From: a virus
Direction: 5' to 3' (one strand)
Length of the DNA stretch: 64,000 nt
Virus record (IMG/VR): IMGVR_UViG_3300025930_000008
Location: 32,001-96,000 of that record
Made by a program: the position numbers and the translations under genes. Below, piece after piece: positions 1,269 to 16,457 of this stretch. Positions within the stretch are counted from its first letter, which is position 1; the number at the start of each line of letters is the position of its first letter. The notes beneath the pieces are model-generated. The model saw only the letters and a program-made list of their open reading frames with translations, had not been told where the DNA came from and did not search any database.

Positions 1269-1397
1269 TATGTGTGACGGATTCTAACCGCGACCTCTCG
1301 GCCTAGCAACTCAACCGGGCACCCTCGGCGGGCGTGGCGAAGCCCCAGGATTTACGTGCCTCTCTATAGCGTAGGCACGACCTCACAGGACACACAC
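1269..1397 (-). ncRNA. tRNA-like structured RNA (~130 nt)
   Basis: Terminal TGTGTG/CACACA stem, 3' T-arm GCGG-TTAGAAT-CCGT, internal CGTGCCT/AGGCACG hairpin; no ORF. Confidence 0.5.
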
Positions 1398-1432
1398 CAT
1401 CTTCTGCTAGCACAACTGTAGCAGGCCAGAGC

Positions 1433-2188
1433 CTAGCCGTCAACCGGTACGCCAAACGCCTGCTGCGTCATGAGTCCCGCCCAATCATGAGCGCGGGAAC
1501 CCATTGCATAATACTTTGCCCAACCTGCGAAGGTCTTAGCCCAATCAGGAACAGAGGCCGGTGCCCAATTAGCAGTCTGGCTTGACAATGCATTCCCCGA
1601 CGCTAGTCGGTCAGCACCATACGGCCAGTTATGATACAGAGTGGCAAGTCGCCAAGCATACTCTGTCTTGTCTGACCTCTGAGCTACTGCCGACTTGGCT
1701 AGGTAGACATTGTAACGATTGTAAAGACTGTTGACCAAGAGGTTCACTTGATACAGAGAGTCAAAAGCACGCTGCACGGCTGGTTCCTCGTAGGGTTCGT
1801 ATACTCTCCTTTGAGTAAAACCACAGTCGGTACCGCCCGCCACTGATACATTGACTGCCGCAATGTAATTACCTGACTCTCCCTGGCAGATCCCTTCAAC
1901 CAGTCCCTTAGGAACTTTAGTTCCGGCGTCGGTACGTACAATACAAGACCGGAGGAAACGTGCTTGACTTTGAGGACCGAATATTCCATCAGCCGACAGA
2001 CCTACAGCTTCCTGCCACAGTTTGACTGCGGCGTCAGTACCTTCACCAAAGGTTCCATCCTCTCCTAGCGGAGCGTTCAACCAGTCTAGAGAATTGAGGC
2101 CCCGCTGGACAGCCCATACTCCCTGATGAATGTCGCCCTTCTTAAAACTATACTTGGTAGAAGTGGGCGGTGTTTGCATAATCCCCAT
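1433..2188 (-). CDS. Endolysin-like protein: peptidoglycan-binding domain plus lysozyme/transglycosylase-like domain
   Basis: DGTFGEGTDAAVKLWQ...GLSADGIFGP (PG-binding); GESG and YHNWP motifs. Confidence 0.7.
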   Translation of the reverse strand: MGIMQTPPTSTKYSFKKGDIHQGVWAVQRGLNSLDWLNAPLGEDGTFGEGTDAAVKLWQEAVGLSADGIFGPQSQARFLRSCIVRTDAGTKVPKGLVEGICQGESGNYIAAVNVSVAGGTDCGFTQRRVYEPYEEPAVQRAFDSLYQVNLLVNSLYNRYNVYLAKSAVAQRSDKTEYAWRLATLYHNWPYGADRLASGNALSSQTANWAPASVPDWAKTFAGWAKYYAMGSRAHDWAGLMTQQAFGVPVDG

Positions 2189-2218
2189 AACATCTGTTAT
2201 AGGTCGGGTCGCACCACT

Positions 2219-2758
2219 TTATTTGGTCCAGGCAGGAGCGTCAAAAATCTGAGCAAGGTCGGCAGGCTTCATCGCTGCCGGTGGAACAGGCCAGATGAAC
2301 CGCCCTCGGGTCAGCGCATCCGAATAAAATCCCGAACAGATAGACGTGGCATATTTCACCGTCACGTACTTTCTATTCAAGGCGAGGTTGAAGAATAAAC
2401 TGACGATGGTACGCCAGCCATACCTATACTTTGCAGCTAGAACATTCTCTGCAAAGGCTAGCACCTGGGTCTGGTCATGCGGGTCCACGTCAACGTGAAC
2501 TAAGGTATACTCTTTCCATTTATACTTGGAGATATGAGTACGCACGACTCCATCACCTAGGGCCTCGGCTAAGTCACCTTGCTCATTAAGTACCAACGCA
2601 GCATGATTCCATGCAGCATACTTGGCTGGGTACCTGAGTTTTTGACCGAACCGAATCAGTTTAGAAAAGAAATAGTCACCGTGAGTGAGGACTAAATCTC
2701 CACACTGTAACGGTGACTCATGGGTCGCACCACTTTGGGTATGTTCTATGTCAGCCAC
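2219..2758 (-). CDS. Permuted papain-like NlpC/P60 (YiiX-type) hydrolase
   Basis: GDLVL...WNHAALV (His) precedes SICSGF (Cys). Confidence 0.7.
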   Translation of the reverse strand: MADIEHTQSGATHESPLQCGDLVLTHGDYFFSKLIRFGQKLRYPAKYAAWNHAALVLNEQGDLAEALGDGVVRTHISKYKWKEYTLVHVDVDPHDQTQVLAFAENVLAAKYRYGWRTIVSLFFNLALNRKYVTVKYATSICSGFYSDALTRGRFIWPVPPAAMKPADLAQIFDAPAWTK

Positions 2759-2766
2759 ATAGATTA

Positions 2767-2839
2767 TAGCTCCGGTAGGAATTGAACCTACGCATGGAGG
2801 CTTATGAAACCTCTGCCTTAACCACTTGGCTACGGAGCC
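2767..2839 (-). tRNA. tRNA-Met(CAT), probably elongator (Ile2 not excluded)
   Basis: Cloverleaf; anticodon arm GAGGT-TT CAT AA-GCCTC. Confidence 0.85.
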
Positions 2840-2888
2840 AGGAGGGACCTGAGTTATTCATCCTCTTGAGGCACGGTCCCAATGCCTA

Positions 2889-2962
2889 CGGGATCGACGG
2901 GACTTGAACCCGCGACCTCCTGCGTGACAGGCAGGCGCTCTAACCGACTGAGCTACGACCCC
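2889..2962 (-). tRNA. tRNA-Asp(GTC)
   Basis: CCTGC-CT GTC AC-GCAGG; T-loop TTCAAGT. Confidence 0.95.
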
Positions 2963-3309
2963 TATGCTTGACCCCACTGACCAGCCCGAACTAAATCCAT
3001 TAGGCTACCGCCAGCTTCGATCCAGATAGTCAACGCTAGCTGAGCTATCTGTGCTTCTTTATTATTCGGAATCCTGATATGATCCTTGCTTGCTACCGCC
3101 TGCATCTTCGCCACGATATAATGGTGAACGTTACGGTGTCCAGTAGGACAGAGCGGTACAGTCTCGGGATGCCACAAACCTATGCCGGTGTCAGGTCGCC
3201 AGAACTTCTGCCACGCTTGAGGCACTACATGATGTAGCTCTTGGGCTATAGGTTTGGGCCTATGGAACATATGCGCATCGCATGTGCGCGCTGTTGTCAC
3301 AGGTATCAT
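2962..3309 (-). CDS. Small HNH-like endonuclease
   Basis: ELHHVVP...LCPTGHRNVH. Confidence 0.6.
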   Translation of the reverse strand: MIPVTTARTCDAHMFHRPKPIAQELHHVVPQAWQKFWRPDTGIGLWHPETVPLCPTGHRNVHHYIVAKMQAVASKDHIRIPNNKEAQIAQLALTIWIEAGGSLMDLVRAGQWGQA

Positions 3310-3317
3310 ACGTATTA

Positions 3318-3388
3318 AGCACCCGAAGGGAATCGAACCCTCAATCTCTGCTTGGAAGGCAGGGGTTATACCATTTAACTACGAGTGC
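3318..3388 (-). tRNA. tRNA-Gly(TCC)
   Basis: CCTGC-CT TCC AA-GCAGA. Confidence 0.93.
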
Positions 3389-3663
3389 ATGTTACGACAG
3401 GTCCAGCAAAGGTAATCATCCATGGCTGCTCGGCGTCCGCAACCATTCCCGCAGCGATTGGAAGCCACCATCCTCTTGACATTCTCGTCGGGCGTAGCCT
3501 TGACATTCGTAGCATTCAAGAAGATGCTTGATGATCGCCTCGCACTCCGCGCTGCTAATTGGCGGGTCTGTTGGTGGACGCCCACCCATCGCTTGTATCC
3601 TTTGAGATAACGTCCTTTCCGCCACTTACGCTTCGCTCCCTGTAGTGGTTTCTGTTGTGGCAT
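3379..3663 (-). CDS. Basic hypothetical protein with C-terminal DDYLC Zn-finger
   Basis: CGNGC...DDYLCWTCR; stop codon inside tRNA-Gly. Confidence 0.55.
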   Translation of the reverse strand: MPQQKPLQGAKRKWRKGRYLKGYKRWVGVHQQTRQLAARSARRSSSIFLNATNVKATPDENVKRMVASNRCGNGCGRRAAMDDYLCWTCRNMHS

Positions 3664-3664
3664 A

Positions 3665-3736
3665 TGGAGGATGAGGGAATCGAACCCTCAACTCCTGCGT
3701 GCAAGGCAGGCATGTTCCCGTTAGCACTAATCCCCC
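3665..3736 (-). tRNA. tRNA-Ala(TGC)
   Basis: CCTGC-CT TGC AC-GCAGG; G3:U70. Confidence 0.95.
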
Positions 3737-3945
3737 GCGTTGACTGGCTCAATTATGCCAGGCATGGCCCATCTTGTCAAGGCTGTTCTTCGACAGTCTG
3801 AGCATAGGTAGTCATCCCATGGTAAGAGTACAGGTTCACCGCACTCAGGACATGCTACCCCGTATTTATTCAACAACGTCTGTTCCGCTTTGCGTGCAGC
3901 CTGAGCGTAATAATCCCGCCACAATTGCGTAGTCGGGTCTACCAT
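3727..3945 (-). CDS. Hypothetical protein with DDYLC Zn-finger
   Basis: CPECG...DDYLCSDCR; stop inside tRNA-Ala. Confidence 0.65.
   Translation of the reverse strand: MVDPTTQLWRDYYAQAARKAEQTLLNKYGVACPECGEPVLLPWDDYLCSDCRRTALTRWAMPGIIEPVNAGD
3752..3780 (-). promoter_or_regulatory. Sigma-A/70-type promoter
   Basis: TTGACA-17 nt-CATAAT just upstream of tRNA-Ala. Confidence 0.7.
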
Positions 3946-3949
3946 ATCA

Positions 3950-4022
3950 AGCCGTCCAGGGGACTTGAACCCCTAACCCCCTGCTTACAAGGCAGGCGCT
4001 CTGCCAATTGAGCTAGGACGGC
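3950..4022 (-). tRNA. tRNA-Thr(TGT)
   Basis: CCTGC-CT TGT AA-GCAGG. Confidence 0.95.
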
Positions 4023-4024
4023 AG

Positions 4025-4669
4025 CTAGTGGAGCGCTGCCCATGTGCGCGCCCCAACTGTTCCATCTGCGGGTAGATTATGTGCCCGCTGGAACGCCTTG
4101 ACTGCTCGCTCAGTATTCTTTCCAAAGAATGGATTGTATCGGTTGCTGTTCGGCTTACCAGTGGCACCGGTTGAGAAATCTCGGATGCCATTATCATACA
4201 GAAGTTTCTTGAGCCGGACAACCGATGGACCCTTGGACTTATACTTGAGTACAGGGTCTACGTTGGCATCCTTGACAGCCGGGTAGCTACCGGGCTTCCA
4301 TTTAATATGCCACCACTCACTAGGAGCATCTGACCATCGTTTCGCAAAACCGTACTTGGCTCCGATCTGATCCACGATGTGACGCATTTGCGGTGTAGCA
4401 AGATCGACCGCCAGCCCCCATCCGTGATTTGAAGTACCTGGGTGGGCAGCGAGATTACCACGTCCTGACCGCCACAAATTCCATAGGTATTGCTGCTGTG
4501 CGTACGTCCGGTACGAGGACATACCGCCAGTTGGTCGAAGAGTAACCCCATACTTACGAACACTCTCCGCGTTCATTGCGTTCCATGCCTTTGCCGCGTC
4601 CTTTCGTAGACGGCCACCGGCAATGTCGCCTAGAGCAACGCCGGGTAGTCTGCCATTAAGGTAAGCCAT
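4025..4669 (-). CDS. Peptidase M15 (VanY-like) endolysin with C-terminal PG-binding domain
   Basis: SYRT, SNHGWGLAVD, EWWH motifs; TERAVKAFQRAHNLPADGTVG. Confidence 0.9.
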   Translation of the reverse strand: MAYLNGRLPGVALGDIAGGRLRKDAAKAWNAMNAESVRKYGVTLRPTGGMSSYRTYAQQQYLWNLWRSGRGNLAAHPGTSNHGWGLAVDLATPQMRHIVDQIGAKYGFAKRWSDAPSEWWHIKWKPGSYPAVKDANVDPVLKYKSKGPSVVRLKKLLYDNGIRDFSTGATGKPNSNRYNPFFGKNTERAVKAFQRAHNLPADGTVGARTWAALH

Positions 4670-4704
4670 TCCATAAACTTACCCACCAGCATGGAAATGA
4701 AAAA

Positions 4705-4775
4705 CTGGGGAACTAGGATTCGAACCTAGACGCTGAGTTCCAAAGACTCATGTGCTGCCGTTACACTATTCCCCA
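4705..4775 (-). tRNA. tRNA-Gln(TTG)
   Basis: TGAGT-CT TTG GA-ACTCA; U1:A72. Confidence 0.93.
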
Positions 4776-5134
4776 TCGGCGTAGCCAGGCTCAGGGTTAG
4801 AAGGTTCTTCGTTATCCATCCTGCGTAGACGCAGAACCATTTCACGAAGTTCCTTATCAGCCTTGTCCTGCGCTGCCTCAGTACGTGACGACTGCCAGCT
4901 TGACCAGTGAGCCACAACAATAGCATACAATGATAGCCAGGTAACAAAGAGAACTTGGTCACCAAAAGCTAAGGCTAATGGTATAGAAACTATCAGCCAG
5001 AAGATAGCAAACCAGCCGTGCAATCTCATGGCATGCTGTGAGTCAGCTAACCAGTTATGTACCTTCTTCATACATATTACATTGAGTTGTGAATGAAAAC
5101 AGTAGGCGGGATTCTGTTCTATCCATGCATCCAT
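4766..5134 (-). CDS. Two-TM membrane protein (holin-like); start uncertain
   Basis: Two hydrophobic segments then charged tail; upstream of the M15 lysin. Confidence 0.5.
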   Translation of the reverse strand: MDAWIEQNPAYCFHSQLNVICMKKVHNWLADSQHAMRLHGWFAIFWLIVSIPLALAFGDQVLFVTWLSLYAIVVAHWSSWQSSRTEAAQDKADKELREMVLRLRRMDNEEPSNPEPGYADGE

Positions 5135-5401
5135 CTATGCTCTCCACCTAGGGGATGCCCTTCCCCGGCTTGAGATTGCATCGCTTCGCTGACGGCAGAG
5201 GTACAAGCGCCCGCACCTATTTGTTGTGGCGGTAGGCGACCGCCTGTCGCTAAGGCTCCCTCCATTTTTACCCGCGCTCGTATCCCTTCCAGGGGATATG
5301 GCTCACGCAATGTCCCGACCTTCCTCGATATTTCTACCGCGCATGGTCGTAATCATTCACACTTAATGTTTATCGTCCACCAATAAACATATTATCGCCT
5401 C

Positions 5402-5566
5402 CTACCAGCGTCGTCCCCAACGGCCATCAGTGCCGCCGCCGAAGTAACTAAACAGTAGAACAACCAACAGCACAACAACTAGAATCCAAATCAGCTTGGT
5501 GAAAACAAAACCACCAACGACTGCTAGGACAACTAGGATTAGAAGTAGCAATAGTAATAGGTCCAT
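5402..5566 (-). CDS. 54-aa hydrophobic membrane peptide
   Basis: MDLLLLLLLILVVLAVVGGFVFTKLIWILVVVLLVVLLFSYFGGGTDGRWGRRW with GGAGG RBS; not in ORF track. Confidence 0.7.
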   Translation of the reverse strand: MDLLLLLLLILVVLAVVGGFVFTKLIWILVVVLLVVLLFSYFGGGTDGRWGRRW

Positions 5567-5609
5567 GATCCTCCCTTCATGCTATTAGCATACAGGAGGG
5601 CACGGATAA

Positions 5610-5680
5610 AGCGGCTAGCGGGAATCGAACCCGCAAATCTTGCATGGCAAGCAAGTAGGTTACCGTTACATCATAGCCGC
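5610..5680 (-). tRNA. tRNA-Gly(GCC)
   Basis: CTTGC-TT GCC AT-GCAAG. Confidence 0.93.
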
Positions 5681-5682
5681 AA

Positions 5683-5754
5683 CGCCCCTAATAGGAATCG
5701 AACCCATCCCTTGTGATCCGAAGTCACACGCGCTATCCAATACACCATAGGGGC
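5683..5754 (-). tRNA. tRNA-Arg(TCG)
   Basis: TGTGA-CT TCG GA-TCACA. Confidence 0.9.
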
Positions 5755-5755
5755 A

Positions 5756-5827
5756 TACCCCCGGTAGGAATCGAACCTACGCACTCGGTTCCGTAGACCG
5801 ACGCTCTATCCACTGAGCTACGAGGGC
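5756..5827 (-). tRNA. tRNA-Arg(ACG)
   Basis: TCGGT-CT ACG GA-ACCGA. Confidence 0.95.
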
Positions 5828-6013
5828 ACGTTCAGGTGCAATGACAGCACCATTGTTTACTAATTCCTGCGGGCTGTTATGGTAGTCACCATCATAACTA
5901 TGCTCATCCATGCGATACCAAACCGTAGATTCATCTACTCTTGTGATGGTACCCCATCCAGTATCTACCCAATACCCATTGTTGGGTAGGTATATCTTCC
6001 GCCCAACAGACAT
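5777..6013 (-). CDS. Hypothetical protein
   Basis: MSVGRKIYLP... start after the HNH stop; reads into tRNA-Arg(ACG). Confidence 0.5.
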   Translation of the reverse strand: MSVGRKIYLPNNGYWVDTGWGTITRVDESTVWYRMDEHSYDGDYHNSPQELVNNGAVIAPERALVAQWIERRSTEPSA

Positions 6014-6029
6014 AAGAGAATGGCGCTCT

Positions 6030-6701
6030 TTACGCAAGCGCCGCGAGAGCCATTGATACTTCGTGGGCAACGCTCGACTCAGCGGGTTCAAACTTACCCT
6101 CCATCCAGTCTTTGACAAGCCTAGCTTCATAGACTGAGCTAGACCCACGACCGATTAGTATGAGTAGCTTGGGACGCTGCTCGGACAGTGCCGTTAGGGC
6201 ACGGTCAGCAAACGCCTTTTCCTGTTCCGTGAGCAAATGAACGATAGATTTGGGTGTACCATTTCTGTCGTGAAGGTCACGGTGACAGTCTATGCAAACA
6301 GGGATGCAGTTTTCCTTGCGGTTAGACCACACTCTCTCGTAGGAATCTAGCTCTCGCAGAATCCAACGGTTGACAAAGTGGTGCTTGGTACTGTCGCCTT
6401 CCTTACCACAAAGTCTACAGGGTGGAGCAACTCTTCTCTGCTCTCTGAACTTATCCCTGCGCCTGCGTATGAGGTCAGGTATCTCGGGAATCTGACCAAG
6501 CGCTTCCCTGAGTCGCTTAAGACATTCAGCCTGCTTAATGCCAGCCTCAAGCAAATCTTCTAGGTCCACATTCTCAACGGACGCCAGCAATTCAAGCTGT
6601 TCATCCGTAGCCTTCTGATGGCTCTGGTTTATCTCAAACCAGTGATGCGGATTGAGGCATGGACTATCACAGCCGATGCCGATGTGCCTTGCGCGACTCA
6701 A
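6030..6701 (-). CDS. HNH endonuclease family protein
   Basis: CRLC...TKHHFV...NCIPVCIDCHRDLH. Confidence 0.75.
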   Translation of the reverse strand: MSRARHIGIGCDSPCLNPHHWFEINQSHQKATDEQLELLASVENVDLEDLLEAGIKQAECLKRLREALGQIPEIPDLIRRRRDKFREQRRVAPPCRLCGKEGDSTKHHFVNRWILRELDSYERVWSNRKENCIPVCIDCHRDLHDRNGTPKSIVHLLTEQEKAFADRALTALSEQRPKLLILIGRGSSSVYEARLVKDWMEGKFEPAESSVAHEVSMALAALA

Positions 6702-6715
6702 ACCTTCCCCCTTTC

Positions 6716-7024
6716 TTACGTTTCGGTATCCTCCCTACACTTAGGGCAGAGATAGTCGTCATCGAGCGTGAAGTATGTCTCAACACACTCACCACAAGTA
6801 GCATTACCTACGGGTGGAGCCAATACCTCCACCTCTTGGATCTGATAGCGCGGGCGATGCTTCTGATGATGGTAGAGAACCGTCAGCCTACCCTCTTTGA
6901 GCGCCTTGTGATAGCTGCTCTTAGGATTGTCACGAATCTCTTTCAACCGCGCGACTACTTCATCAGGAGAGTGTAGATCACGCCCCTTCTGAACAGTCTT
7001 GGCCTTGTACCAATCAACCTGCAT
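6716..7024 (-). CDS. Hypothetical protein with DDYLC Zn-finger
   Basis: Start MQVDWY; CGEC...DDDYLCPKCR. Confidence 0.65.
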   Translation of the reverse strand: MQVDWYKAKTVQKGRDLHSPDEVVARLKEIRDNPKSSYHKALKEGRLTVLYHHQKHRPRYQIQEVEVLAPPVGNATCGECVETYFTLDDDYLCPKCREDTET

Positions 7025-7364
7025 CGCGGCACTCCGGGCAAAGGTAATCGTCCCCAAAGAACGGGGACTCACACTCAGCACAGGGCTTAGCACCAGGCGG
7101 AACACCTTCGTTGAGTACCATTACAGCCCAAGGCTTAGCGACGGGTTCTTCCTCATCCTTATCAGGAATCTTTACCATCATCTTCTTCCCGGTACCCATA
7201 GGAGTTTCGGGTCGGACCTTAGAGTTGTAATGAATCTCCAACTCAGAGTCAGCGTGCCTTCCAGCGCCCTTGCTAATCTTAGCCGCGTACTTCTCGGCTT
7301 CGTCCAAGGTGGCGAAGGTCTTGAGTGGGTATGCGCTTCTGACAATCACCAAGGCCACGTCCAT
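7014..7364 (-). CDS. Hypothetical protein with DDYLC Zn-finger
   Basis: CAEC...GDDYLCPECR. Confidence 0.7.
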   Translation of the reverse strand: MDVALVIVRSAYPLKTFATLDEAEKYAAKISKGAGRHADSELEIHYNSKVRPETPMGTGKKMMVKIPDKDEEEPVAKPWAVMVLNEGVPPGAKPCAECESPFFGDDYLCPECRDAG

Positions 7365-7495
7365 CCGATGACAACAGGACCAATATGAAAGGTATACACC
7401 TTCCCTTGTGTCTCTGCATCGAGAATTGTCTTAGCGACAAAGAAGAATGGGATGCCCCATAGCTTCATCCTAAACTGTCCGTCGATCTGTTGCAT
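7346..7495 (-). CDS. 49-aa leaderless hypothetical protein
   Basis: MQQIDGQFRMKLWGIPFF...; ATG 6 nt after a -10 box. Confidence 0.5.
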   Translation of the reverse strand: MQQIDGQFRMKLWGIPFFFVAKTILDAETQGKVYTFHIGPVVIGWTWPW

Positions 7496-7501
7496 GGCCC
7501 C

Positions 7502-7530
7502 AGGATACCAGGGCGTCAGGGGAAATGCAA
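7502..7530 (-). promoter_or_regulatory. Sigma-A-type promoter for a leaderless mRNA
   Basis: TTGCAT-17 nt-TATCCT-6 nt-ATG. Confidence 0.55.
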
Positions 7531-7531
7531 G

Positions 7532-7604
7532 TAGCGCGTACGGGAATCGAACCCGTGTTACCGCCTTGAGAGGGCGGCGTATTAGGCCACTATACTAACG
7601 CGCC
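7532..7604 (-). tRNA. tRNA-Glu(CTC)
   Basis: CCGCC-CT CTC AA-GGCGG. Confidence 0.93.
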
Positions 7605-7607
7605 ATG

Positions 7608-7728
7608 TAGGGACGTTCATTTGTCGCTTTGGGCCACTCCCTATTAGGGGAGGTACGCTCGCCACACGTACAACTGACACGGGTTCAATACCCGCCGCCT
7701 CTTGACACGGGGTATCCGCCCGTCCCTA
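7608..7728 (-). ncRNA. Multi-branched structured RNA (~120 nt)
   Basis: TAGGGACG/CGTCCCTA closing stem; hairpins CGGGT/ACCCG, GTACG/CGTAC, CTCCC/GGGAG. Confidence 0.55.
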
Positions 7729-8100: not shown

Positions 8101-8103
8101 CAA

Positions 8104-8177
8104 TACCCCCACTAGGACTCGAACCTAGAACCTTGAGATTAAAAGTCTCCTACTCTAACCAATTGAGTTATGGGGGC
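8104..8177 (-). tRNA. tRNA-Lys(TTT)
   Basis: GGAGA-CT TTT AA-TCTCA. Confidence 0.93.
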
Positions 8178-8185
8178 GCGTCCCC

Positions 8186-9287: not shown

Positions 9288-9363
9288 TAGCGAGAGAGTC
9301 GGATGAAGTGAACACGCAGCGTGTTCTATGAGGGTAGGATAACCGCTCTCTCATACCTACCAA

Positions 9364-9436
9364 TGGGCACGGTTGGAATCGAACCAACGACTTCCACCTT
9401 ATCAGAGTGGCGCTCTAACCGCTGAACTACGTGCCC
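9364..9436 (-). tRNA. tRNA-Ile(GAT)
   Basis: CCACT-CT GAT AA-GGTGG. Confidence 0.95.
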
Positions 9437-9437
9437 G

Positions 9438-10175
9438 TTAGGGTAATTGCCTTAGAGAATGCTTGCCCATCGGGATGCAAGCCTCACCATCATCATTCAA
9501 GATAGTCTCCAAGTCCTCAACTCGTAAGAAACAATCTCCGTCCAGACCCCAGGTCTTGCCCCAGGAGTTGCGCAAGCGTACCACATGAAGCTCGCCGTGT
9601 CCAGGGAATCGACGCTTGAGGGCATGACCGCGTACACAAATAGCATGACCACCGACGTGCTGTCCAGAAATGTCAAGCAGCCCGGAAGGGTCCGGGTCAA
9701 ACATGCTATCGCGCCACCAAATGCCAATTTCCACGACACCGTGGTTAGATAAGGTGGCTAGTACGTCATCAATGCTGAACGCCCAACGGTATGAGTCAAT
9801 GAACCCATACTGTTGCATGATCTTCGCACCTGACAATACAGAAGTACCATCGTTGTGCGGATTAGCGCCAGGGTATGCTCCACCCGGCCAAGGATCATTC
9901 TTTTGAGCTTCCCAATAGACCTTTTGCTCTGCAAAGCTATTGGAAATACCTCGCGTGTGATCTTTGTACGCTGAGGCGCAGTGGCTCCATGAGAAACCTA
10001 CACAAGCACCCTCTTGTCCCTGGTCTAACCAGACTGGACACTGCCAAGTCTTAGTCTTTAGCGTCTCGGGGACCAGACCACGGATATCGTAGTCCTTTGA
10101 GCGGTCATCGAACTCTTGGAGTCTATCGAGCCGCCTGTCTTGTGTATCTGTACCGTCGCGTAGAGTAGGCATCAC
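9438..10175 (-). CDS. Papain-family (C1A-like) cysteine peptidase
   Basis: DQGQEGACVGFS, GGHA, RNSWG catalytic motifs. Confidence 0.9.
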   Translation of the reverse strand: MMPTLRDGTDTQDRRLDRLQEFDDRSKDYDIRGLVPETLKTKTWQCPVWLDQGQEGACVGFSWSHCASAYKDHTRGISNSFAEQKVYWEAQKNDPWPGGAYPGANPHNDGTSVLSGAKIMQQYGFIDSYRWAFSIDDVLATLSNHGVVEIGIWWRDSMFDPDPSGLLDISGQHVGGHAICVRGHALKRRFPGHGELHVVRLRNSWGKTWGLDGDCFLRVEDLETILNDDGEACIPMGKHSLRQLP

Positions 10176-10194
10176 CCATTACGCTACGGAGGCA

Positions 10195-10266
10195 TGGCGA
10201 ATATTGGAGTCGAACCAATGACGCGAGGTTCTTCAGACCTCCGCTCTACCACTGAGCTAATTCGCC
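10195..10266 (-). tRNA. tRNA-Phe(GAA)
   Basis: GAGGT-CT GAA GA-ACCTC. Confidence 0.95.
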
Positions 10267-10348
10267 AAGTGAAGGCGGTTCGCCCCGCACCTTACGAACC
10301 CGAATCGTACGCGGTGGGCATAGGACACTAGTAATCCATTACCGCCAG

Positions 10349-10438
10349 CGGAGAGTGTAGGATTCGAACCCACGCGCCGGTTCAAGGCCGACCAACGGTT
10401 TTCAAGACCGCCCCAATAGTCCACTCTGGCAACTCTCC
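10349..10438 (-). tRNA. tRNA-Ser(TGA)
   Basis: GCGGT-CT TGA AA-ACCGT; long variable arm. Confidence 0.95.
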
Positions 10439-10439
10439 A

Positions 10440-10872
10440 TGTCGTGTATAAATAAGCTGCGAGAGGCATAGCGTCCGCAGCTAAGATAGCCCGAATTGCA
10501 AGGTAAAGGTCAGGCCCTAGGCTCATCTGGCACAGCCGGGGTGTCCGTCCCTACGTAGGTTCATTCCAGGCCACGACTACCTAGCTGAAACCTATACCTC
10601 GGAGGCGTTCGCAGCCCCAAGCGGGTGAAGAACCACTTCAACCTTTAAGTTTAGAAACCTCCTGTTCGATGACAAATGATAGACATTTCAACCGACCTGA
10701 GCGTGTCCGTGGATACTGTGTTCGCACGCAGCGGTCAAGCACTCGGCCCCATATCCTTTTCGGCTGGCTACTCCGTCGCCCTTGCACAGTCATAGGTTTC
10801 TAAGGGTTCCCGCCCTCCACCTAATCTTCCCGCACAGTATGTGTCAGTCTATAAGCCTCAGGTTCTCAGCCA
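10440..10872 (-). ncRNA. Large pseudoknotted structured RNA candidate
   Basis: ~430 nt without a credible ORF; three long-range helices, two of them crossing. Confidence 0.55.
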
Positions 10873-11094
10873 CTATTGGCCCTGTCCTAACCACCCTTGT
10901 AGGTGACTTTTATCTGCGACAACCTCTACATTGAGAGGGTCCCATGGTTGGGGCTGATCCCGTAGTGATTCATCCTCGGGATTTTCTGCCACAATCCAAG
11001 TGATGCCAGGATCGCTGTGAGCATACTCCCCCCAATACTTCAATGCATCGGCTTCGCTCACCACTCGGCCATACAGACCGTAGTAGTGATTCAA
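10873..11094 (-). CDS. Hypothetical protein (start uncertain)
   Basis: Open frame between tRNA-Cys and the ncRNA; TTG start assumed. Confidence 0.4.
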   Translation of the reverse strand: MNHYYGLYGRVVSEADALKYWGEYAHSDPGITWIVAENPEDESLRDQPQPWDPLNVEVVADKSHLQGWLGQGQ

Positions 11095-11121
11095 GATAAG
11101 GTATCTGACCTTAGTCTTGCA

Positions 11122-11192
11122 AGGCAAGGACGGGAGTCGAACCCGTGTTACAGGTTTTGCAGACCCGCGCGTAGCCATTCCGCCACCTTGCC
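11122..11192 (-). tRNA. tRNA-Cys(GCA)
   Basis: CGGGT-CT GCA AA-ACCTG; U73. Confidence 0.95.
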
Positions 11193-11306
11193 ATTACGTC
11201 GTAGACATTCCTCACGGTCACAATTACATGCGTTCTGACAAACGAAACCCTTGTGACACTCACAGTCTTTGATGGGCTGTTCACAAATAGTACATTTCCA
11301 TACCAT
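11148..11306 (-). CDS. Small Cys-rich protein
   Basis: MVWKCTICEQPIKDCECHKGFVCQNACNC; stop inside tRNA-Cys. Confidence 0.45.
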   Translation of the reverse strand: MVWKCTICEQPIKDCECHKGFVCQNACNCDREECLRRNGKVAEWLRAGLQNL

Positions 11307-11308
11307 AG

Positions 11309-11380
11309 CTCGCCGGGTAGGACTTGAACCTACAACCATTCGGTTAACAGCCGAACGCTCTGCCATTGAGCTACCGGCGA
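11309..11380 (-). tRNA. tRNA-Asn(GTT)
   Basis: TTCGG-CT GTT AA-CCGAA. Confidence 0.95.
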
Positions 11381-11631
11381 CTGTTGATCCAACTATCTAG
11401 ACACGCCTTATGAGTGGGCAGTAACTCCCAATCAGCGTGCCAAGTACCCTGCACAATGTCAAAGGTTTCCGTACCTTCGTCTGACCACTCGCCACCCATG
11501 CGTTGTATTTTACACGGGATTCCCTGGCGTCCTTCCTGAGCCTGTTCAACTGTAATGATACGCCAGATCGCACATTCGCTTTTATCAAAGCGGTAGTTTG
11601 CATATATTCTACCGACTAGCGGCTCTTTCAT
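11371..11631 (-). CDS. Hypothetical protein
   Basis: 86-aa ORF filling the gap; stop at tRNA-Asn nt 8-10. Confidence 0.55.
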   Translation of the reverse strand: MKEPLVGRIYANYRFDKSECAIWRIITVEQAQEGRQGIPCKIQRMGGEWSDEGTETFDIVQGTWHADWELLPTHKACLDSWINSRR

Positions 11632-11632
11632 A

Positions 11633-11705
11633 TGCCCCCAACAGGGATCGAACCTGTGACCTTGAGATTAAGAGTCTCCTGCTCTACCGGCTGAGCTATA
11701 GGGGC
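11633..11705 (-). tRNA. tRNA-Lys(CTT)
   Basis: GGAGA-CT CTT AA-TCTCA. Confidence 0.93.
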
Positions 11706-11769
11706 GATGATTGGTCATTCCCCTTACCCCTAGGGAATCGTTACTGGATGGGCAACCAATCAAGTTGTA

Positions 11770-11849
11770 TGGCGGGTGGAGGAATCGAACCTCATTACGC
11801 TCTCGCCAGCTAGGTTATGAGCCTTGCTGCCCAAACCTGGGCACCCGCG
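11770..11849 (-). tRNA. Atypical CAT tRNA (initiator-like)
   Basis: CGCGGGTG 5' end with unpaired C1, shrunken D-arm, CTCATAA loop, long variable region, TTCGATT T-loop. Confidence 0.7.
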
Positions 11850-11863
11850 TCGTAAATTTGCTA

Positions 11864-11949
11864 CGGAGAGTGGGGGATTTGAACCCCCGGTACCCACTGG
11901 ATACTCCGTCTTAGCAGGACGGTGCATTAAGCCACTCTGCCAACTCTCC
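11864..11949 (-). tRNA. tRNA-Ser(GCT)
   Basis: CCGTC-CT GCT AA-GACGG. Confidence 0.95.
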
Positions 11950-12135
11950 CTGTGTGATACGTGGCACCCACGTACCCCTTTTAACTAAGGCGAAAAACTC
12001 TATCAACGTACACTTAGAACTATCCGTCAATCCATCTACACGGCCGTCTGTGTAAGTCCAATAAACTCTTTCCGTCTTAGGATCATAGAGATAATCCTTC
12101 ACCATTGCGTTCGCTTCCCAACGAAAAGAAATCAT
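11911..12135 (-). CDS. Hypothetical protein
   Basis: 74-aa ORF; stop in the tRNA-Ser anticodon loop. Confidence 0.45.
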   Translation of the reverse strand: MISFRWEANAMVKDYLYDPKTERVYWTYTDGRVDGLTDSSKCTLIEFFALVKRGTWVPRITQGELAEWLNAPSC

Positions 12136-12136
12136 A

Positions 12137-12208
12137 CGGCCCCGGTGAGAATCGAACTCACATCTATCCCTTAGGAGGGGATCGTTCTGTCCATTATACT
12201 ACAGGGCC
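12137..12208 (-). tRNA. tRNA-Arg(CCT)
   Basis: ATCCC-CT CCT AA-GGGAT. Confidence 0.9.
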
Positions 12209-12264
12209 AGAAGCAGGGCATTTCAGCCCCACCCACGTCACCGCTTTAGGACAACGGCTGCCTG

Positions 12265-12468
12265 TCAGATATCCATAGCGCACTGGTTAACGCAATCCCG
12301 ACAACAATTGCACACCGTATCGTAATCGCCACCGATTTCCTCTGCATACGGACAGCCATGAGGAATCTCTCCCTCATTACCGCAGTTACAGAGCGGACTG
12401 ATTGCCGATAACAACCAGTCTTTGACAACCTGCTTGTAAATATGCATACGTATTTGCACAGCAGGCAT
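12265..12468 (-). CDS. Small Cys-rich protein
   Basis: CNCG...HGCPYAEEI...CNCCRDCVNQCAMDI. Confidence 0.55.
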   Translation of the reverse strand: MPAVQIRMHIYKQVVKDWLLSAISPLCNCGNEGEIPHGCPYAEEIGGDYDTVCNCCRDCVNQCAMDI

Positions 12469-12540
12469 AGGCCAGGATGGATTTGAACCATCGACCCGCA
12501 CCTTATAAGAGTGCCGCTCTAACCCCTGAGCTACTGGCCC
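12468..12540 (-). tRNA. tRNA-Ile(TAT)
   Basis: GCACT-CT TAT AA-GGTGC; body resembles tRNA-Ile(GAT). Confidence 0.92.
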
Positions 12541-12549
12541 AATTAGTTA

Positions 12550-12728
12550 GAGGATCGTATATGGGGGACTTACTTCATGGATAGGTACGCACTACGCCGG
12601 GGCGACCACACCCCTCTCGGCCAGCACGCATACTCCTAGATGTAGTCAACATCGTTAGTGACCTATATCAATCCGCTTACCCTTATCCCACCTGCGCACT
12701 GTGGGCGGCAATTATCCGTCCGATCCTC
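12550..12728 (-). ncRNA. Structured RNA (~180 nt)
   Basis: GAGGATCG/CGATCCTC closing stem fills the Thr-Ile spacer; internal CCCAC/GTGGG, GATGT/ACATC, GGGG/CCCC hairpins. Confidence 0.55.
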
Positions 12729-12729
12729 A

Positions 12730-12801
12730 AGCCCGCGAGGGGAATCGAACCCCTATCCCTGCTTTACGAAAGCAGTATAATAGCCGTTATACTACGCGGG
12801 C
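12730..12801 (-). tRNA. tRNA-Thr(CGT)
   Basis: CTGCT-TT CGT AA-AGCAG. Confidence 0.92.
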
Positions 12802-12899
12802 GACTTACTTATCAGGCACAATCATAGTGCCTTTACAGATGGGACATACCCTACCATTGTTAAGGATGCCCCCTTTCATCTTGCATTTACAATCCATAG

Positions 12900-13349
12900 T
12901 GGAGGTGGGCGGAATTGAACCGCCGTCCTGCGTACACTTGTTGACTCAGTTTCTAGCAGCTTTGTAATACAATACTGGCAACCGGTTCTGAGCCGCCTAC
13001 CCTTACTCTACCACAAGATACGGCAGACTCATGCTAGTGACTGTTTGAAATAGTCGGGAGCAGCCTGTTGTTCCGTACACCCTGCTGTCGAGATTACTCA
13101 CCACGCAATGGAAATACCATTAGAGTGGAGCCGAGTAAGCCAATTAGATTGACCGTCTAATCTTTCCAAACAAGGATTTGGGACTTTATACCCCGGCCAC
13201 GCTTTCTGTTCCTAGGTCCGTGGCTCCTGACCCGAGCGGACTAAGCCGCTAGAGCAAACGTATGAGTGTCTGCAATTATTGTTAGTGGTAGGCCACTACC
13301 CGCTGCACTAAGGCAACCGCATCTTACACAGTCGATGCCTGTCACCCCC
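12900..13349 (-). ncRNA. ssrA: tmRNA; tag reading frame ADTHTFALAA* at 13273-13241
   Basis: 5' GGGGGTGACAGGCATCGAC; 3' GACGGCGGTTCAATTCCGCCCACCTCCA; G3:U70; AATAATT before GCA resume codon; ALAA-stop. Confidence 0.95.
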
Positions 13350-13553
13350 ATGATTATCAGCCTCCACCTAGCCTTATTAGACTAACGTCTAGCTTACGGC
13401 CTCGCTCTAGATTTGCTGACACGGAGCGAATTAAAGTTTATGCCGGATTTCTTGGACGGCTCCGGCAACCGCCCATAAGGAGTTTATGAAAGGTGGTACC
13501 TCAACAAGACCGCGATATTCGCCTTGTTCCTCTCATAGACTCCACCAAGTTAT

Positions 13554-13686
13554 ACGAGAGTCCACTGTGCCGTAGCCACTCCGAACGGTTCCTGCCGTCC
13601 CGCACTAGCCTCACGGTCTAGGCGATGGTCGGGAGACAATCTCCCCCTTGGGGCAGTCCATCCCAACTTAGAAGTAGAACTCTCTA
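13554..13686 (-). ncRNA. Structured RNA (~130 nt) with CAGGAA hairpin
   Basis: GAGAGTT/GACTCTC closing stem; ACGG-CAGGAA-CCGT. Confidence 0.5.
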
Positions 13687-13687
13687 G

Positions 13688-13757
13688 TAGACCGGGCAGG
13701 ATTCGAACCTGCAATGAACAATGATAAAGATTGTTTGTGTACCGTACACACCGGTCA
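13688..13757 (-). tRNA. tRNA-Pyl-shaped element with TTA (ochre) anticodon
   Basis: TGACCGG T GTGT ACGGT ACAC A AACAAT CTTTATC ATTGTT CATT GCAGG TTCGAAT CCTGC CCGGTCT A. Confidence 0.7.
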
Positions 13758-13824
13758 AGCCCCGGCATAGGGTTCCCGCCCTATGTTACTCCGGGGTCGT
13801 CCACGGACAATTAGTCGATGGACA

Positions 13825-13896
13825 TGGGCCGCACTGGAATCGAACCAGTGACTTCCTGCGTGTCGAGCAGGCGTTCTACCGCTGAACTAGCGGCCC
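13825..13896 (-). tRNA. tRNA-Val(GAC)
   Basis: CCTGC-TC GAC AC-GCAGG (C33). Confidence 0.9.
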
Positions 13897-13995
13897 TAGT
13901 TACGTGAGCTAGCTTACTCACTTCGCTAGCTCACACCCAAAACAACGCCTGATTCTGACGATGCGTGAGCGGGATGGTTGACCAACCAGAACAAC

Positions 13996-14024
13996 AGTTT
14001 AGCCGATGTTCTGGCGACTGTCAA
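13996..14024 (-). promoter_or_regulatory. Sigma-A/70-type promoter
   Basis: TTGACA-17 nt-TAAACT upstream of Val(GAC), the ochre element and tmRNA. Confidence 0.7.
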
Positions 14025-14026
14025 GC

Positions 14027-14188
14027 TTATCGGGACGAGAGGTAAACGCCTTCTATCTTTGCCCCACTGTACTCCTGCTTGTCAATCGCGTCTGCAACAG
14101 CAAGACCAACATCTTGGCGCAAGTCAAACTTCTTGATAGGCGCCAACGTCGTCGGAATGGTGATGACCACCGTGATTGTATTATCCAT
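14027..14188 (-). CDS. 53-aa hypothetical protein
   Basis: MDNTITVVITIPTTLAPIKKFDLRQDVG...; not in ORF track. Confidence 0.45.
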   Translation of the reverse strand: MDNTITVVITIPTTLAPIKKFDLRQDVGLAVADAIDKQEYSGAKIEGVYLSSR

Positions 14189-14214
14189 GCTAAAAACGTA
14201 GCACGACTGTCAAG

Positions 14215-14286
14215 TGGACCCGGCTGGGATCGAACCAGCGACCTTCTGCTTGTAAGGCAGACGTTCTCCCACTAAACTACGGGTCC
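14215..14286 (-). tRNA. tRNA-Val(TAC)
   Basis: TCTGC-CT TAC AA-GCAGA. Confidence 0.93.
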
Positions 14287-14289
14287 GCA

Positions 14290-14365
14290 GCAGGCTCCCT
14301 CATGGGGCGTACCTCCCATAGACACTACCCGACAGGTTCCCGCCTGTCAAGGCGAGGGAACCTGC
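14290..14365 (-). ncRNA. Three-way-junction RNA with CGGGAA hairpin
   Basis: GCAGGTTCCCTC/GAGGGAGCCTGC stem enclosing GACAGG-CGGGAA-CCTGTC and ATGGG/CCCAT. Confidence 0.55.
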
Positions 14366-14427
14366 GTGCTTAATCCCCGTGGGTACGCACGGATTAGGTA
14401 CTGCGATGGCCCCTGACTGATGGGCAG

Positions 14428-14499
14428 AGCCGTCACCGGGAATCGAACCCGGCTTACTAACTTACCAAGCTAGGGTAATATCCGATATACTATGACGGC
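14428..14499 (-). tRNA. tRNA-Thr(GGT)
   Basis: CTAGC-TT GGT AA-GTTAG. Confidence 0.9.
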
Positions 14500-14502
14500 T
14501 TA

Positions 14503-14576
<74 letters not shown>

Positions 14577-14741
14577 TTACAAATGACTGAATACATAAGT
14601 CACAGCAGAGATACCATGACTAATGAAACTCATGATACCGGTGGCAGCAGCCACCTTGAGGTACCACAATTCCTTACGGCTGAGCGTAACCTTTTCCTCA
14701 GCCTTCTTTATGGCTTTAAGTTTCGCTTCTTCCTTGTCCAT
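14577..14741 (-). CDS. Small membrane protein
   Basis: MDKEEAKL... charged N-terminus and one C-terminal TM segment. Confidence 0.5.
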   Translation of the reverse strand: MDKEEAKLKAIKKAEEKVTLSRKELWYLKVAAATGIMSFISHGISAVTYVFSHL

Positions 14742-15066
14742 TGAGCGCCTTGCTTTGACGCCGCTTATACCCAAAGATCAAGTAGAGCGCGACATTCCCT
14801 GCGATGAATCCCACCGCATTCAGCGGGATATAGTAGGAAAACCCTGTGTCAAGTCTCTCAACGTTGTTAGTCAACGCTGACGTGGCTAAGAGCAGATACG
14901 AAACGGCAATGAGTACAACATGGAGCGGCAGCAGAGCTACATATCCTCCCTGCTTGCGCAGTTTGAGGTAGCTCTGGGTATATACCACCACAATCAGCAC
15001 CACAAACGACACAATGCCTCCGTACAGAAAGATATTCAAGTATCGGAGGCCATCCAAAATGCTCAT
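14716..15066 (-). CDS. Three-TM membrane protein
   Basis: Three hydrophobic segments, basic tail. Confidence 0.65.
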   Translation of the reverse strand: MSILDGLRYLNIFLYGGIVSFVVLIVVVYTQSYLKLRKQGGYVALLPLHVVLIAVSYLLLATSALTNNVERLDTGFSYYIPLNAVGFIAGNVALYLIFGYKRRQSKALNGQGRSET

Positions 15067-15080
15067 GCTCTATTACCTAG

Positions 15081-15151
15081 CGGGGGATCGAGGATTTGAA
15101 CCCCGAAGTTCGGGTTTGGAGGCCGACAGTTTACCATTAGCTTAATCCCCC
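15081..15151 (-). tRNA. tRNA-Trp(CCA)
   Basis: TCGGC-CT CCA AA-CCCGA; G73. Confidence 0.9.
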
Positions 15152-15452
15152 AGGAGCGCACGGAGGGAGCGCGAGATTCTCTCACCCCTCGGTTATGTGA
15201 ACAGACTTGTCATACGCCGACTTCACGCGGGCGGATTCTAACCATAGACCCTAAGGCGTATAGTTCATATGTGACTATACCGCGAAGGGACTCCGTTTCC
15301 ATCGAATACTCCTGAACGCATGGTGCCATCTGAAACAATCGTCATTGCCACGCCGCTTTTCGCTACTTGTATACTGCCCTCCGGGGATCAATCCATCCAG
15401 ACGCATACGTTTGCTCGCTACAGCCGTGCGCATGTATTGAGCAATGACGAAG

Positions 15453-15534
15453 TACGCCCGGAGGGACTTGAACCCCCACACCTTTCGGCATCAGGACCTA
15501 AACCTGACGTGTCTACCGATTCCACCACGGGCGC
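15453..15534 (-). tRNA. tRNA-Leu(TAG)
   Basis: TCAGG-TT TAG GT-CCTGA. Confidence 0.93.
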
Positions 15535-15668
15535 TAGTACCGATAACGTTCAAGGAAGGGCTGTTATCGGTGTTATCGTGCGACTGCCATTGGACCATAT
15601 TCATAGTCGAGAGCCTTGCGCCGCTGCATGATACCCCGGATTCCCGTCCGGCATATTCATGCCTGATA

Positions 15669-15751
15669 TGCGATCAGTGAGAGTCGAACTCACACGCCTG
15701 TTAGGGCACTGACCCCTCAAGCCAGCGTGTCTACCATTTCACCATGATCGC
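15669..15751 (-). tRNA. tRNA-Leu(GAG)
   Basis: CTGGC-TT GAG GG-GTCAG. Confidence 0.93.
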
Positions 15752-15765
15752 TAAAGATTTTGAAA

Positions 15766-15847
15766 TGGCGGGAGTAGGATTCGAACCTACGAAGGCATAG
15801 CCGTCTGATTTACAGTCAGATGCGTTTGACCGCTCCGCAACCCCGCC
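15766..15847 (-). tRNA. tRNA-Tyr(GTA)
   Basis: TCTGA-CT GTA AA-TCAGA. Confidence 0.95.
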
Positions 15848-15856
15848 GAATAAACA

Positions 15857-15972
15857 CTTGGGCACCTAGATTGGGTGCGACCCTTCTCTTTCAAGTCAAC
15901 TTCCTCCTGCCTAGCCTTATCCGGGCAGATGGTTCGCCGTATCTACGGCTGATCTAGGAGTTGGCTCCCAAG
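15857..15972 (-). ncRNA. Structured RNA candidate (~115 nt)
   Basis: CTTGGG/CCCAAG and CCTAGAT/ATCTAGG nested closing stems; GCCGTA/TACGGC and CTGCC/GGCAG hairpins. Confidence 0.45.
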
Positions 15973-16007
15973 CTATGTAGTTTTTGTCAGTCTACCAGAC
16001 TGTCAAG

Positions 16008-16080
16008 CGCCCCCGCCCGGATTTGAACCGGGAACCTGCGGTTTAGAAGGCCGCTGCGCTATCCGTTGCGCCACAGGGGC
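16008..16080 (-). tRNA. tRNA-Arg(TCT)
   Basis: GCGGC-CT TCT AA-ACCGC. Confidence 0.92.
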
Positions 16081-16082
16081 AT

Positions 16083-16110
16083 AAAAAAGGCGACCCTCTT
16101 TGGTCGCCCC
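16083..16110 (-). terminator. Intrinsic terminator directly upstream of the first tRNA
   Basis: GGGGCGACC-aaagag-GGTCGCC-TTTTTT. Confidence 0.8.
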
Positions 16111-16457
16111 CGTCTTACACCTATCGTATGGGTAGACGAGAGCTAGACCAGGGGCTTACGACCTCCGATAAAGGCGTCCCAATTCTGATGTTCGGTCGAA
16201 TATCTCATACTCGTCTGATTCTTAGTGCAGGCGGGGCACCCGTTTTATAGGTCCCCGCGATGGTCGTTTCACGATAGCAGATGGTCCGGTGGAGTCAAGA
16301 GCGCCAACGCGCCAAGACGGATCGGGGCACCTTCACCTTTGGCGAATGACCCTCAGGCCGATCACAAGGATAGCCGTCACCACCATTGCCGGGTGCCCAC
16401 CAGACCACCCCATCCCACTTCACGCGATAGATACAGTATCTACAATCAGCACTGAAT

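Follow-up and report, generated by a model that had tools for sequence, protein, structure and literature searches.

Structured spacers and a conserved minority of RNA elements in the tRNA array of an uncultured soil phage

In this study, the spacers between the transfer RNA (tRNA) genes of an uncultured virus were investigated in a window of 64,000 nucleotides (nt), namely, positions 32,001 to 96,000 of the 107-kb IMG/VR virus record IMGVR_UViG_3300025930_000008 (CheckV completeness of 67%). Positions 1200-16450 of this window are a single co-oriented RNA-gene island of an uncultured soil phage, and its tRNA array (2766-16080, minus strand) contains 37 tRNA genes detected by ARAGORN and the Rfam tRNA model, together with small open reading frames (ORFs) and spacers. 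The array spacers are, as a class, unusually structured. We consider it probable on balance that they are mostly self-folding, replaceable filler freed by tRNA trimming, and that a minority is conserved and probably functional; we infer the cleavages, the release of the spacers and any function. The original prediction described the array as doubling as an array of non-coding RNAs (ncRNAs) and listed 13 intervals, all of which fall between genes of the minus-strand array. This description is partly supported, as it holds for a minority of the spacers.

Results

Excess structure of the array spacers

The fold stability of the 13 intervals was determined on the transcribed strand as a z-score (z) against 100-200 dinucleotide shuffles. 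Two intervals were clearly stable, namely, 14290-14365 (z = -4.8) and 13758-13823 (-4.3). Moderate values were obtained at 7608-7728 (-2.4), 13554-13686 (-2.3), 15857-15972 (-2.3), 15536-15668 (-2.0), 9290-9362 (-1.9) and 10273-10346 (-1.8). The values at 12550-12728 (-1.2), 1269-1397 (-1.1), 11708-11762 (-1.0), 2843-2888 (-0.2) and 10440-10872 (+0.5) were weak or null; five of the 13 intervals lay at or above -1.2, and 10440-10872, which had been put forward as a structured element, had no excess stability. The whole array gaps of up to 201 nt (n = 17) showed a mean z of -1.98 on the transcribed strand, with 41% below -2, compared with a mean of -0.33 and 9% below -2 in random windows of the same phage (n = 334; Mann-Whitney p = 5e-7) and a mean of -0.48 in the intergenic gaps outside the array (n = 22; p = 0.004). 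The spacers as a class thus folded better than shuffled sequence.

The prediction that most gaps are filled by elements with paired ends or dense hairpins held for the dense hairpins, as a property of the class; closed stems were found in some spacers and are not a general rule. Eight of the 13 intervals were closed end to end by stems of 6-12 bp in the minimum free energy (MFE) structure; this count is no independent test, because the interval coordinates had been picked to fit those stems. The pairing of gap ends exceeded that of shuffles weakly (Fisher p = 0.08 for 22 gaps and 0.012 for 10 tRNA-to-tRNA spacers), and the closing stem of 1269-1397 was gone from the MFE structure once the whole gap was folded.

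Relatives of the array

Scans of viral and metagenome contigs based on the ribonucleotide reductase (RNR), whose class II gene flanks the array on the upstream side, yielded one useful relative (G001) and one near-identical contig (L087). G001 is the nearest uncultured relative; its reductase is 75% identical at the protein level, its gene order is the same, and its array (locus L083), which is syntenic with 2766-16080, comprises 39 tRNAs, a transfer-messenger RNA (tmRNA) and an RNase P RNA. L087 matches the array at 99.7% identity and adds almost no covariation data, because only nine differences are present in about 2800 array positions; four of the nine form a single run in a hairpin bulge (spacer 13758-13823). 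Over positions 13653-18200, the reductase gene differs from L087 at 4.5% of positions and the adjoining array at 0.3%, and this mosaic divergence suggests a recent recombination boundary near 16457. The nearest cultured phages are 55-59% identical in the reductase protein. The closest of them, Tunturiibacter phage Tunturi_3 (59%), lacks a tRNA array in the 15 kb on each side of its RNR gene and is therefore of no use as a control.

Lineage specificity of most spacers

None of the 13 intervals matched Rfam 15, either in the gathering scan or in E-value scans with lax filters. The only exceptions inside the intervals were a 22-bit YrlA and a 16.5-bit sX4 match, both resting on flanking tRNAs. 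Spacers were rejected as tRNAs or pseudo-tRNAs (RF00005), given that no tRNA match was present in the closed spacers of 73-76 nt at E-values up to 1-5; ARAGORN at 85% thresholds revealed no extra tRNA on the array strand. No paralogue of any listed element was found elsewhere in the genome, apart from a shared hairpin core. Repeated mobile elements were likewise rejected, given this result and the lack of target-site duplications at 12550-12728 and 11708-11762. The blastn search of all spacers against 80 related loci detected nothing, and relaxed pairwise blastn of syntenic gaps detected homology only in the gap between tRNA-Leu(UAG) and tRNA-Trp, in the RNase P RNA and in short anchors of the Arg-Tyr gap. 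Pattern scans with conserved spacer blocks returned only G001 or a chance match without tRNAs.

Seven of the 13 listed elements have no detectable counterpart in G001. Two of these, both on the minus strand as are all array elements described below, have no room there, because the tRNAs that flank them lie 15 and 0 nt apart: the spacer at 12550-12728 (8-bp closing stem; closure p = 0.016) stands between tRNA-Thr(CGU) and tRNA-Ile(UAU), and the 55-nt hairpin spacer at 11708-11762 (9-bp closing stem) stands between tRNA-Met and tRNA-Lys(CUU), which abut in G001. Five others have no similarity to the syntenic gap. The spacer at 7608-7728, whose perfect 8-bp closing stem shares bases with the stop codon of ORF 7726-8112, folds similarly on both strands (z of -2.4 on minus and -2.3 on plus), and its syntenic gap is without homology. 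The closed 73-nt spacer at 9290-9362 (closure p = 0.04) is not tRNA-like, with no match by the tRNA covariance model or by relaxed ARAGORN. The closed 74-nt spacer at 10273-10346 similarly gave no tRNA match with lax filters, and G001 has a tRNA-Ser(CGA) where it would be. The short spacer at 2843-2888 forms one weak hairpin, and the 433-nt gap at 10440-10872 has neither an Rfam match nor homology to its syntenic gap.

These data bear directly on the possibility that most spacers are independent, trans-acting functional small ncRNAs, each released by tRNA punctuation. The class-wide excess of structure, the MFE closing stems of eight listed elements, the tmRNA and RNase P RNA (which show that the island makes non-tRNA RNAs) and the precedent of rnaC and rnaD of phage T4 agree with such a set of genes. 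We nevertheless regard it as quite unlikely, given that seven listed elements have no counterpart in G001 and two are simply missing there, that Rfam matches and paralogues are lacking, that z is at or above -1.2 for five elements, and that closure is not conserved. The claim of many small structured RNAs survives for the tmRNA, the RNase P RNA, two spacer orthologues and a recurring fixed-loop hairpin; it is the word 'many' that is not supported, given the seven elements without a G001 counterpart.

A recurring hairpin with a C(A/G)GGAA loop

Five of the listed spacers contain a hairpin whose G-C(A/G)GGAA-C loop is fixed and whose stems are unrelated; it occurs once more at G000 12223-12242, and all copies of the window phage lie on the transcribed strand. 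G001 has three further copies, two of which are syntenic, resulting in nine copies in two phages; more distant relatives contain CGGGAA-loop hairpins in background numbers only. Among stems of at least 5 bp on the transcribed strand, CGGGAA is the commonest hexaloop, with five occurrences against 0.22 expected per hexamer (Bonferroni p of about 0.015). In the nine-copy alignment, 84.7% of stem cells were paired compared with 60.1% in shuffles (0/500), six of the eight pairs were changed on both sides, and seven loop or closing positions were invariant; covariation with homologues was thus found for this hairpin. Three of the stems use G.U pairs, which are A.C on the opposite strand, and G.U pairs occur on the transcribed strand only.

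The array copies are distributed as follows. The CGGGAA-loop hairpin at 13766-13785 has a 7-bp stem and an outer 6-bp stem, and lies inside 13758-13823, just upstream of tRNA(UUA). The copy at 13583-13600, inside 13554-13686, has a CAGGAA loop and a stem G.U pair on the transcribed strand. The CGGGAA-loop hairpin at 15636-15651 is the core of a longer irregular hairpin inside 15536-15668, that at 10802-10817 lies inside the gap at 10440-10872, and that at 14328-14351 is the first hairpin of 14290-14365. The sixth copy, outside the window, lies within locus L169 (G000:C1:11985-12448, minus strand), a region of about 460 nt without ORFs that is flanked by two ORFs, ends in a canonical terminator and is possibly a separate ncRNA gene. 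No common flank was seen among the nine copies. The hairpins were rejected as intrinsic terminators, because U tracts are lacking downstream of all nine.

The invariant loop raises the possibility that these hairpins alone are the functional core of the array, serving as binding sites for a CsrA/RsmA-type binder of GGA loops or for a nut/boxB-like antitermination factor that would carry RNA polymerase through the long untranslated array, the rest of the spacers being irrelevant. In the alignment, GGA occupies hexaloop positions 3-5 (G11, G12 and A13, all invariant) and a purine occupies position 2, presumably as in the hairpins selected with CsrA by SELEX. The copies are dispersed along one transcription direction only, and the extra copy at G000 12223-12242 is in an ORF-free region that ends in a terminator. 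In the CsrA/RsmA consensus (A/U-C-A-N-G-G-A-N-G-U/A), the loop begins with A and is closed by a C-G pair. A canonical CsrA site was rejected because the loop begins with C in all nine copies and is closed by G-C in eight of them and by A-U in the ninth, never by C-G. A lambdoid boxB/nut site was rejected because the loop has 6 nt rather than the GNRA-like pentaloop of boxB, and no boxA-like flank is shared among the nine copies. Distances to downstream genes vary between 9 and 364 nt, which also argues against a role of this kind. Taken together, we find it improbable that these hairpins are the only functional part of the array.

A T-arm-like hairpin with a UUAGAAU loop

The GG-UUAGAAU-CC hairpin corresponds to a T arm in which C56 is replaced by A. 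Two copies are present in the window array and four in G001, including one syntenic pair (15232-15244 in the window and L083 2853-2869) in which a stem change is compensated. In L083, all occurrences of TTAGAAT on the transcribed strand lie in a hairpin loop, and no TTAGAAT in a hairpin was found in the other related loci searched. The other window copy (GCGG-UUAGAAU-CCGU, 1277-1291) belongs to a tRNA-like closed element at 1270-1397, in which the 3' strand of a 7-bp closing stem directly follows the T-arm-like hairpin. This layout is that of T4 rnaC, which has a closed stem and a T arm beside its 3' strand (folded here, z = -4.6), and it was found at 1270-1397 alone. As a tRNA-like closed element, 1270-1397 is weak, because z is -1.1 and the closure is lost with flanking sequence; no sequence homologue is present in G001.

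A tRNA-like element and a tRNA were also noted in L083 of G001. The former, at 17496-17562 (plus strand) between tRNA-Ala and tRNA-Gly, is degenerate and has a canonical UUCGAAU T arm. The latter, at 10419-10492 (plus strand), is a 60.7-bit tRNA with an 8-nt anticodon loop, to which ARAGORN assigns the anticodon 'ttat'.

The T-arm-like hairpins could be tRNA relics, and the spacers may accordingly be viewed as mostly non-functional scars of array growth and decay, consisting of remnants of lost tRNAs or cassettes, recombination joints, and ordinary promoters and terminators, with hairpins that are DNA palindromes or by-products without a role as RNA. The degenerate element of L083 fits this view, as do the presence or absence of whole spacers between relatives, the nearly equal fold scores of both strands, and the TTGAC promoter-like sites and terminators inside gaps. 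We consider it rather unlikely all the same. The spacers exceed the remaining intergenic DNA of this phage in structure, and no spacer scores as a tRNA, even with relaxed settings. Moreover, six T-like loops have the same C-to-A change, and the CRGGAA loop is invariant across nine unrelated stems, some with G.U pairs; random decay would produce neither.

Larger conserved elements

The closed multi-hairpin element at 15857-15972, which lies between tRNA-Arg(UCU) and tRNA-Tyr, is conserved in G001. Its single-sequence covariance model found one match in 198 kb, the syntenic L083 1663-1779 (16.1 bits); two hairpins are common in sequence, and the remaining stems differ. The closed two-hairpin element at 14290-14365 lies between tRNA-Thr(GGU) and tRNA-Val(UAC), and its model (R2) had a full-length match only at the syntenic L083 3661-3726 (17.6 bits). 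This element also holds a TTGACA-N17-TAGTGT promoter-like site. Neither model had another match in the window.

The spacer between tRNA-Leu(UAG) and tRNA-Trp (15152-15451), absent from the earlier list of intervals, contains conserved non-coding blocks in addition to its UUAGAAU hairpin. Identity with L083 2635-2756 is 63% over 125 nt, one block of 24 nt is nearly invariant, and no ORF common with G001 was found in this spacer. The best-conserved non-coding blocks of the array are those of this spacer (L083 2620-2999 in G001).

RNase P RNA and processing of tRNA ends

A reduced RNase P RNA candidate of about 272 nt is located at 5087-5358, between tRNA-Gly(GCC) and tRNA-Gln(UUG). It aligns over its full length with RF00010 (40.2 bits, E = 6.5e-11), below the gathering score of 100. 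The alignment shows GAGGAAGGUCGGG, AUAGAUGGAUG and ACAGAAUCCCGCCUAC, and the features of a type A RNA (CR-I, CR-IV, CR-V and P1-P4) are present; most positions of the specificity domain are deleted, and this domain is incomplete. A homologue at L083 15293-15788 (plus strand) occupies the same place in G001, is 67% identical over 207 nt, and has CR-I and CR-V near the consensus; no RNase P RNA match was detected in 34 other related viral records. In the window, the candidate is hidden under two mechanically called ORFs. Among the non-tRNA genes of the island it is the most striking, and it stands outside the 13 listed elements.

The 3' ends of the tRNAs are informative about processing. None of the 37 tRNAs encodes CCA, and the discriminator is followed by U in 24 and by CU in 12 (36 of 37 together). 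In G001, U follows in 10 of 39 and CU in 22 of 39, and a single tRNA has CCA. RNase Z cleaves CCA-less precursors 3' of the discriminator, after the action of RNase P, and CCA-less tRNAs with U or CU after the discriminator are in this light the signature of an RNase Z cut and subsequent CCA addition (PMC1874595). An open frame of 1198 amino acids (aa) at locus L085, outside the window, contains a PolyA_pol/CCA-adding nucleotidyltransferase domain (G000:C1:15090-15503, minus strand; 92.8 bits) and is far longer than a usual CCA-adding enzyme. The 107-kb record (67% complete) yielded neither an RnpA nor an RNase Z gene. A preference for U following the discriminator was reportedly described by Pellegrini et al. 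in 2003. The lack of encoded CCA, the U or CU in 36 of 37 tRNAs and the CCA-adding-type domain make the release of spacers by tRNA-end processing plausible.

Boundaries and other genes of the island

A canonical intrinsic terminator at 16085-16112, composed of a G+C-rich stem and a run of six T, lies 5 nt upstream of the first tRNA, and another at 1226-1248, conserved in G001, lies at the far end of the island. Four CTTGACAG promoter-like sites are present at 16000-16007, 14344-14351, 14207-14214 and 14018-14025 (range 14018-16007), two of them directly after a tRNA; this motif occurs eight times in the window, compared with 2.4 expected. In G001, TTGACG-N17-TATAGT and TTGACG-N17/18-TACAT immediately follow the same tRNAs. 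The general scan for promoters and terminators showed no enrichment over shuffles. Given the TTGAC(A/G) promoter-like sites after tRNAs in both phages and the terminators at the ends, processing is probably not the sole delimiter of the RNAs.

The tmRNA gene of the array (12897-13349) was detected with RF00023 (68.8 bits, above the gathering score) and with ARAGORN. Small ORFs are interspersed in the array, the majority of which are not common to G001, and two have peptidoglycan-binding or VanY-type domains. Tiny Cys-rich ORFs at 11193-11300, 12268-12457 and 12802-12896 (minus strand) start a few bases past the 3' end of the preceding tRNA or tmRNA. On either side of an ORF for a 54-aa hydrophobic protein, the gaps at 5359-5401 and 5567-5609 (minus strand) have z of -3.3 and -2.9, and the fold of the latter would sequester the ribosome-binding site of this ORF. 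The tRNA with a UUA (ochre-reading) anticodon at 13687-13757 (minus strand) is mismatched at U1:U72 and has a pyrimidine at position 37. Its score with the Rfam tRNA model is 36.3 bits under lax filters, and the whole-window scan missed it. Its first bases double as a TTGACC -35-like box.

Discussion

The reading that we favour is that of mostly replaceable filler with a functional minority. Transcripts would start at several sigma-70-like promoters and be bounded by the two canonical terminators. RNase P would cut the 5' end of each tRNA, an RNase Z-type endonuclease would cut just past the discriminator, ahead of U or CU, and CCA would then be added. The two kinds of cut would together set free all spacers and small mRNAs, each with defined ends. 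The spacers may be selected to self-fold into local hairpins, in some cases with end-to-end closure, which would prevent mispairing with neighbouring tRNAs and may let the spacers persist. Most of them would be lineage-specific filler without an RNA function of their own. The functional minority would comprise the CRGGAA tag (five array copies), the UUAGAAU tag (two copies), 15857-15972 and 14290-14365. The tags and the two larger elements would most likely be recognised by a protein or ribonucleoprotein that may act on the precursor in processing, stabilisation or antitermination.

Several observations weigh against this reading. The opposite strand folds nearly as well as the transcribed one (mean z of -1.6 vs -1.9), such that stems with only Watson-Crick pairs may be DNA-level palindromes. 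End-to-end closure is weak and not conserved, and gap-end pairing was not seen in the syntenic array of G001 (Fisher p = 0.95). Only one informative relative (G001) exists, and covariation for the two larger elements is drawn from two sequences, with rough E-values of 0.07 and 0.36 before synteny is considered. The tRNAs of more distant relatives are packed 2-5 nt apart, which implies that structured spacers are not needed in tRNA arrays generally.

A bolder proposal is that the island is a self-contained RNA-maturation unit with a phage RNase P RNA, a CCA-adding enzyme and two private tags read by a phage-specific factor, which would yield stable small RNAs with their own functions in infection besides the tRNAs and the tmRNA. 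We regard this proposal as unlikely.

Large tRNA arrays of phages are usually annotated as tRNAs and 'nothing'. Here, that 'nothing' has measurable structure. It carries two lineage-specific hairpin tags on covarying stems as well as the two conserved multi-hairpin elements, and its neighbours in the island include a tmRNA and a phage RNase P RNA. Should the tags serve as signals for processing or binding, the array would be a counterpart in a bacterial virus of the tRNA punctuation of organelles, and would help to address the long-standing question of the purpose of T4-type 'species 1/2' RNAs. Otherwise, the array is a warning against counting self-folding array spacers as new ncRNA genes without evidence of conservation.

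Among known systems, the large ncRNAs GOLLD and ROOL often occur near tRNAs and in prophages (PMC5737381); the original prediction had placed both near phage tRNA clusters, correctly so for GOLLD. They are about 580-800 nt long and highly ornate, with many junctions and pseudoknots, whereas the only window gap of similar size (10440-10872) has no excess stability; membership in these families (RF01998 and RF03087-type models) was rejected because no Rfam match was present in the window and the z of this gap was +0.5. YrlA (RF02553) combines a closed stem with a tRNA-like domain and is also known from phages. A Y RNA acting with Ro was rejected, because the only YrlA match (22.4 bits, gathering score of 69) rests on tRNA-Phe and no Rsr/TROVE gene is present in the record. 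The CRGGAA tag resembles the hairpins of boxB, CsrA/RsmA and MS2/PP7 in its invariant loop, covarying stems and repetition along the transcript, whereas its loop sequence and closing pair fit none of lambda boxB, CsrA/RsmA or MS2/PP7.

The closest precedents are T4 rnaC and rnaD, and the tRNA punctuation of organelles. In organelles, RNase P and RNase Z recognise tRNAs and t-elements, and their cuts define where neighbouring RNAs begin or end (Forner et al. 2007, PMC1920247). The window array is similar in that its tRNAs are CCA-less and followed by U or CU, with spacers and small ORFs between them; it differs in belonging to a bacteriophage, in that its cleavages are predicted rather than mapped, and in that the freed pieces would be mostly non-coding spacers. 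T4 rnaC and rnaD (the species 1 and 2 RNAs) are annotated as small stable RNAs at the end of the T4 tRNA cluster. Similar to the spacers described here, they are small, have no assigned function and lie on the same strand as the tRNAs. In T4, the two RNAs follow eight tightly packed tRNAs and the T-like loop is UUCGAAU, whereas the window phage has structured spacers between many of its 37 tRNAs and a UUAGAAU loop.

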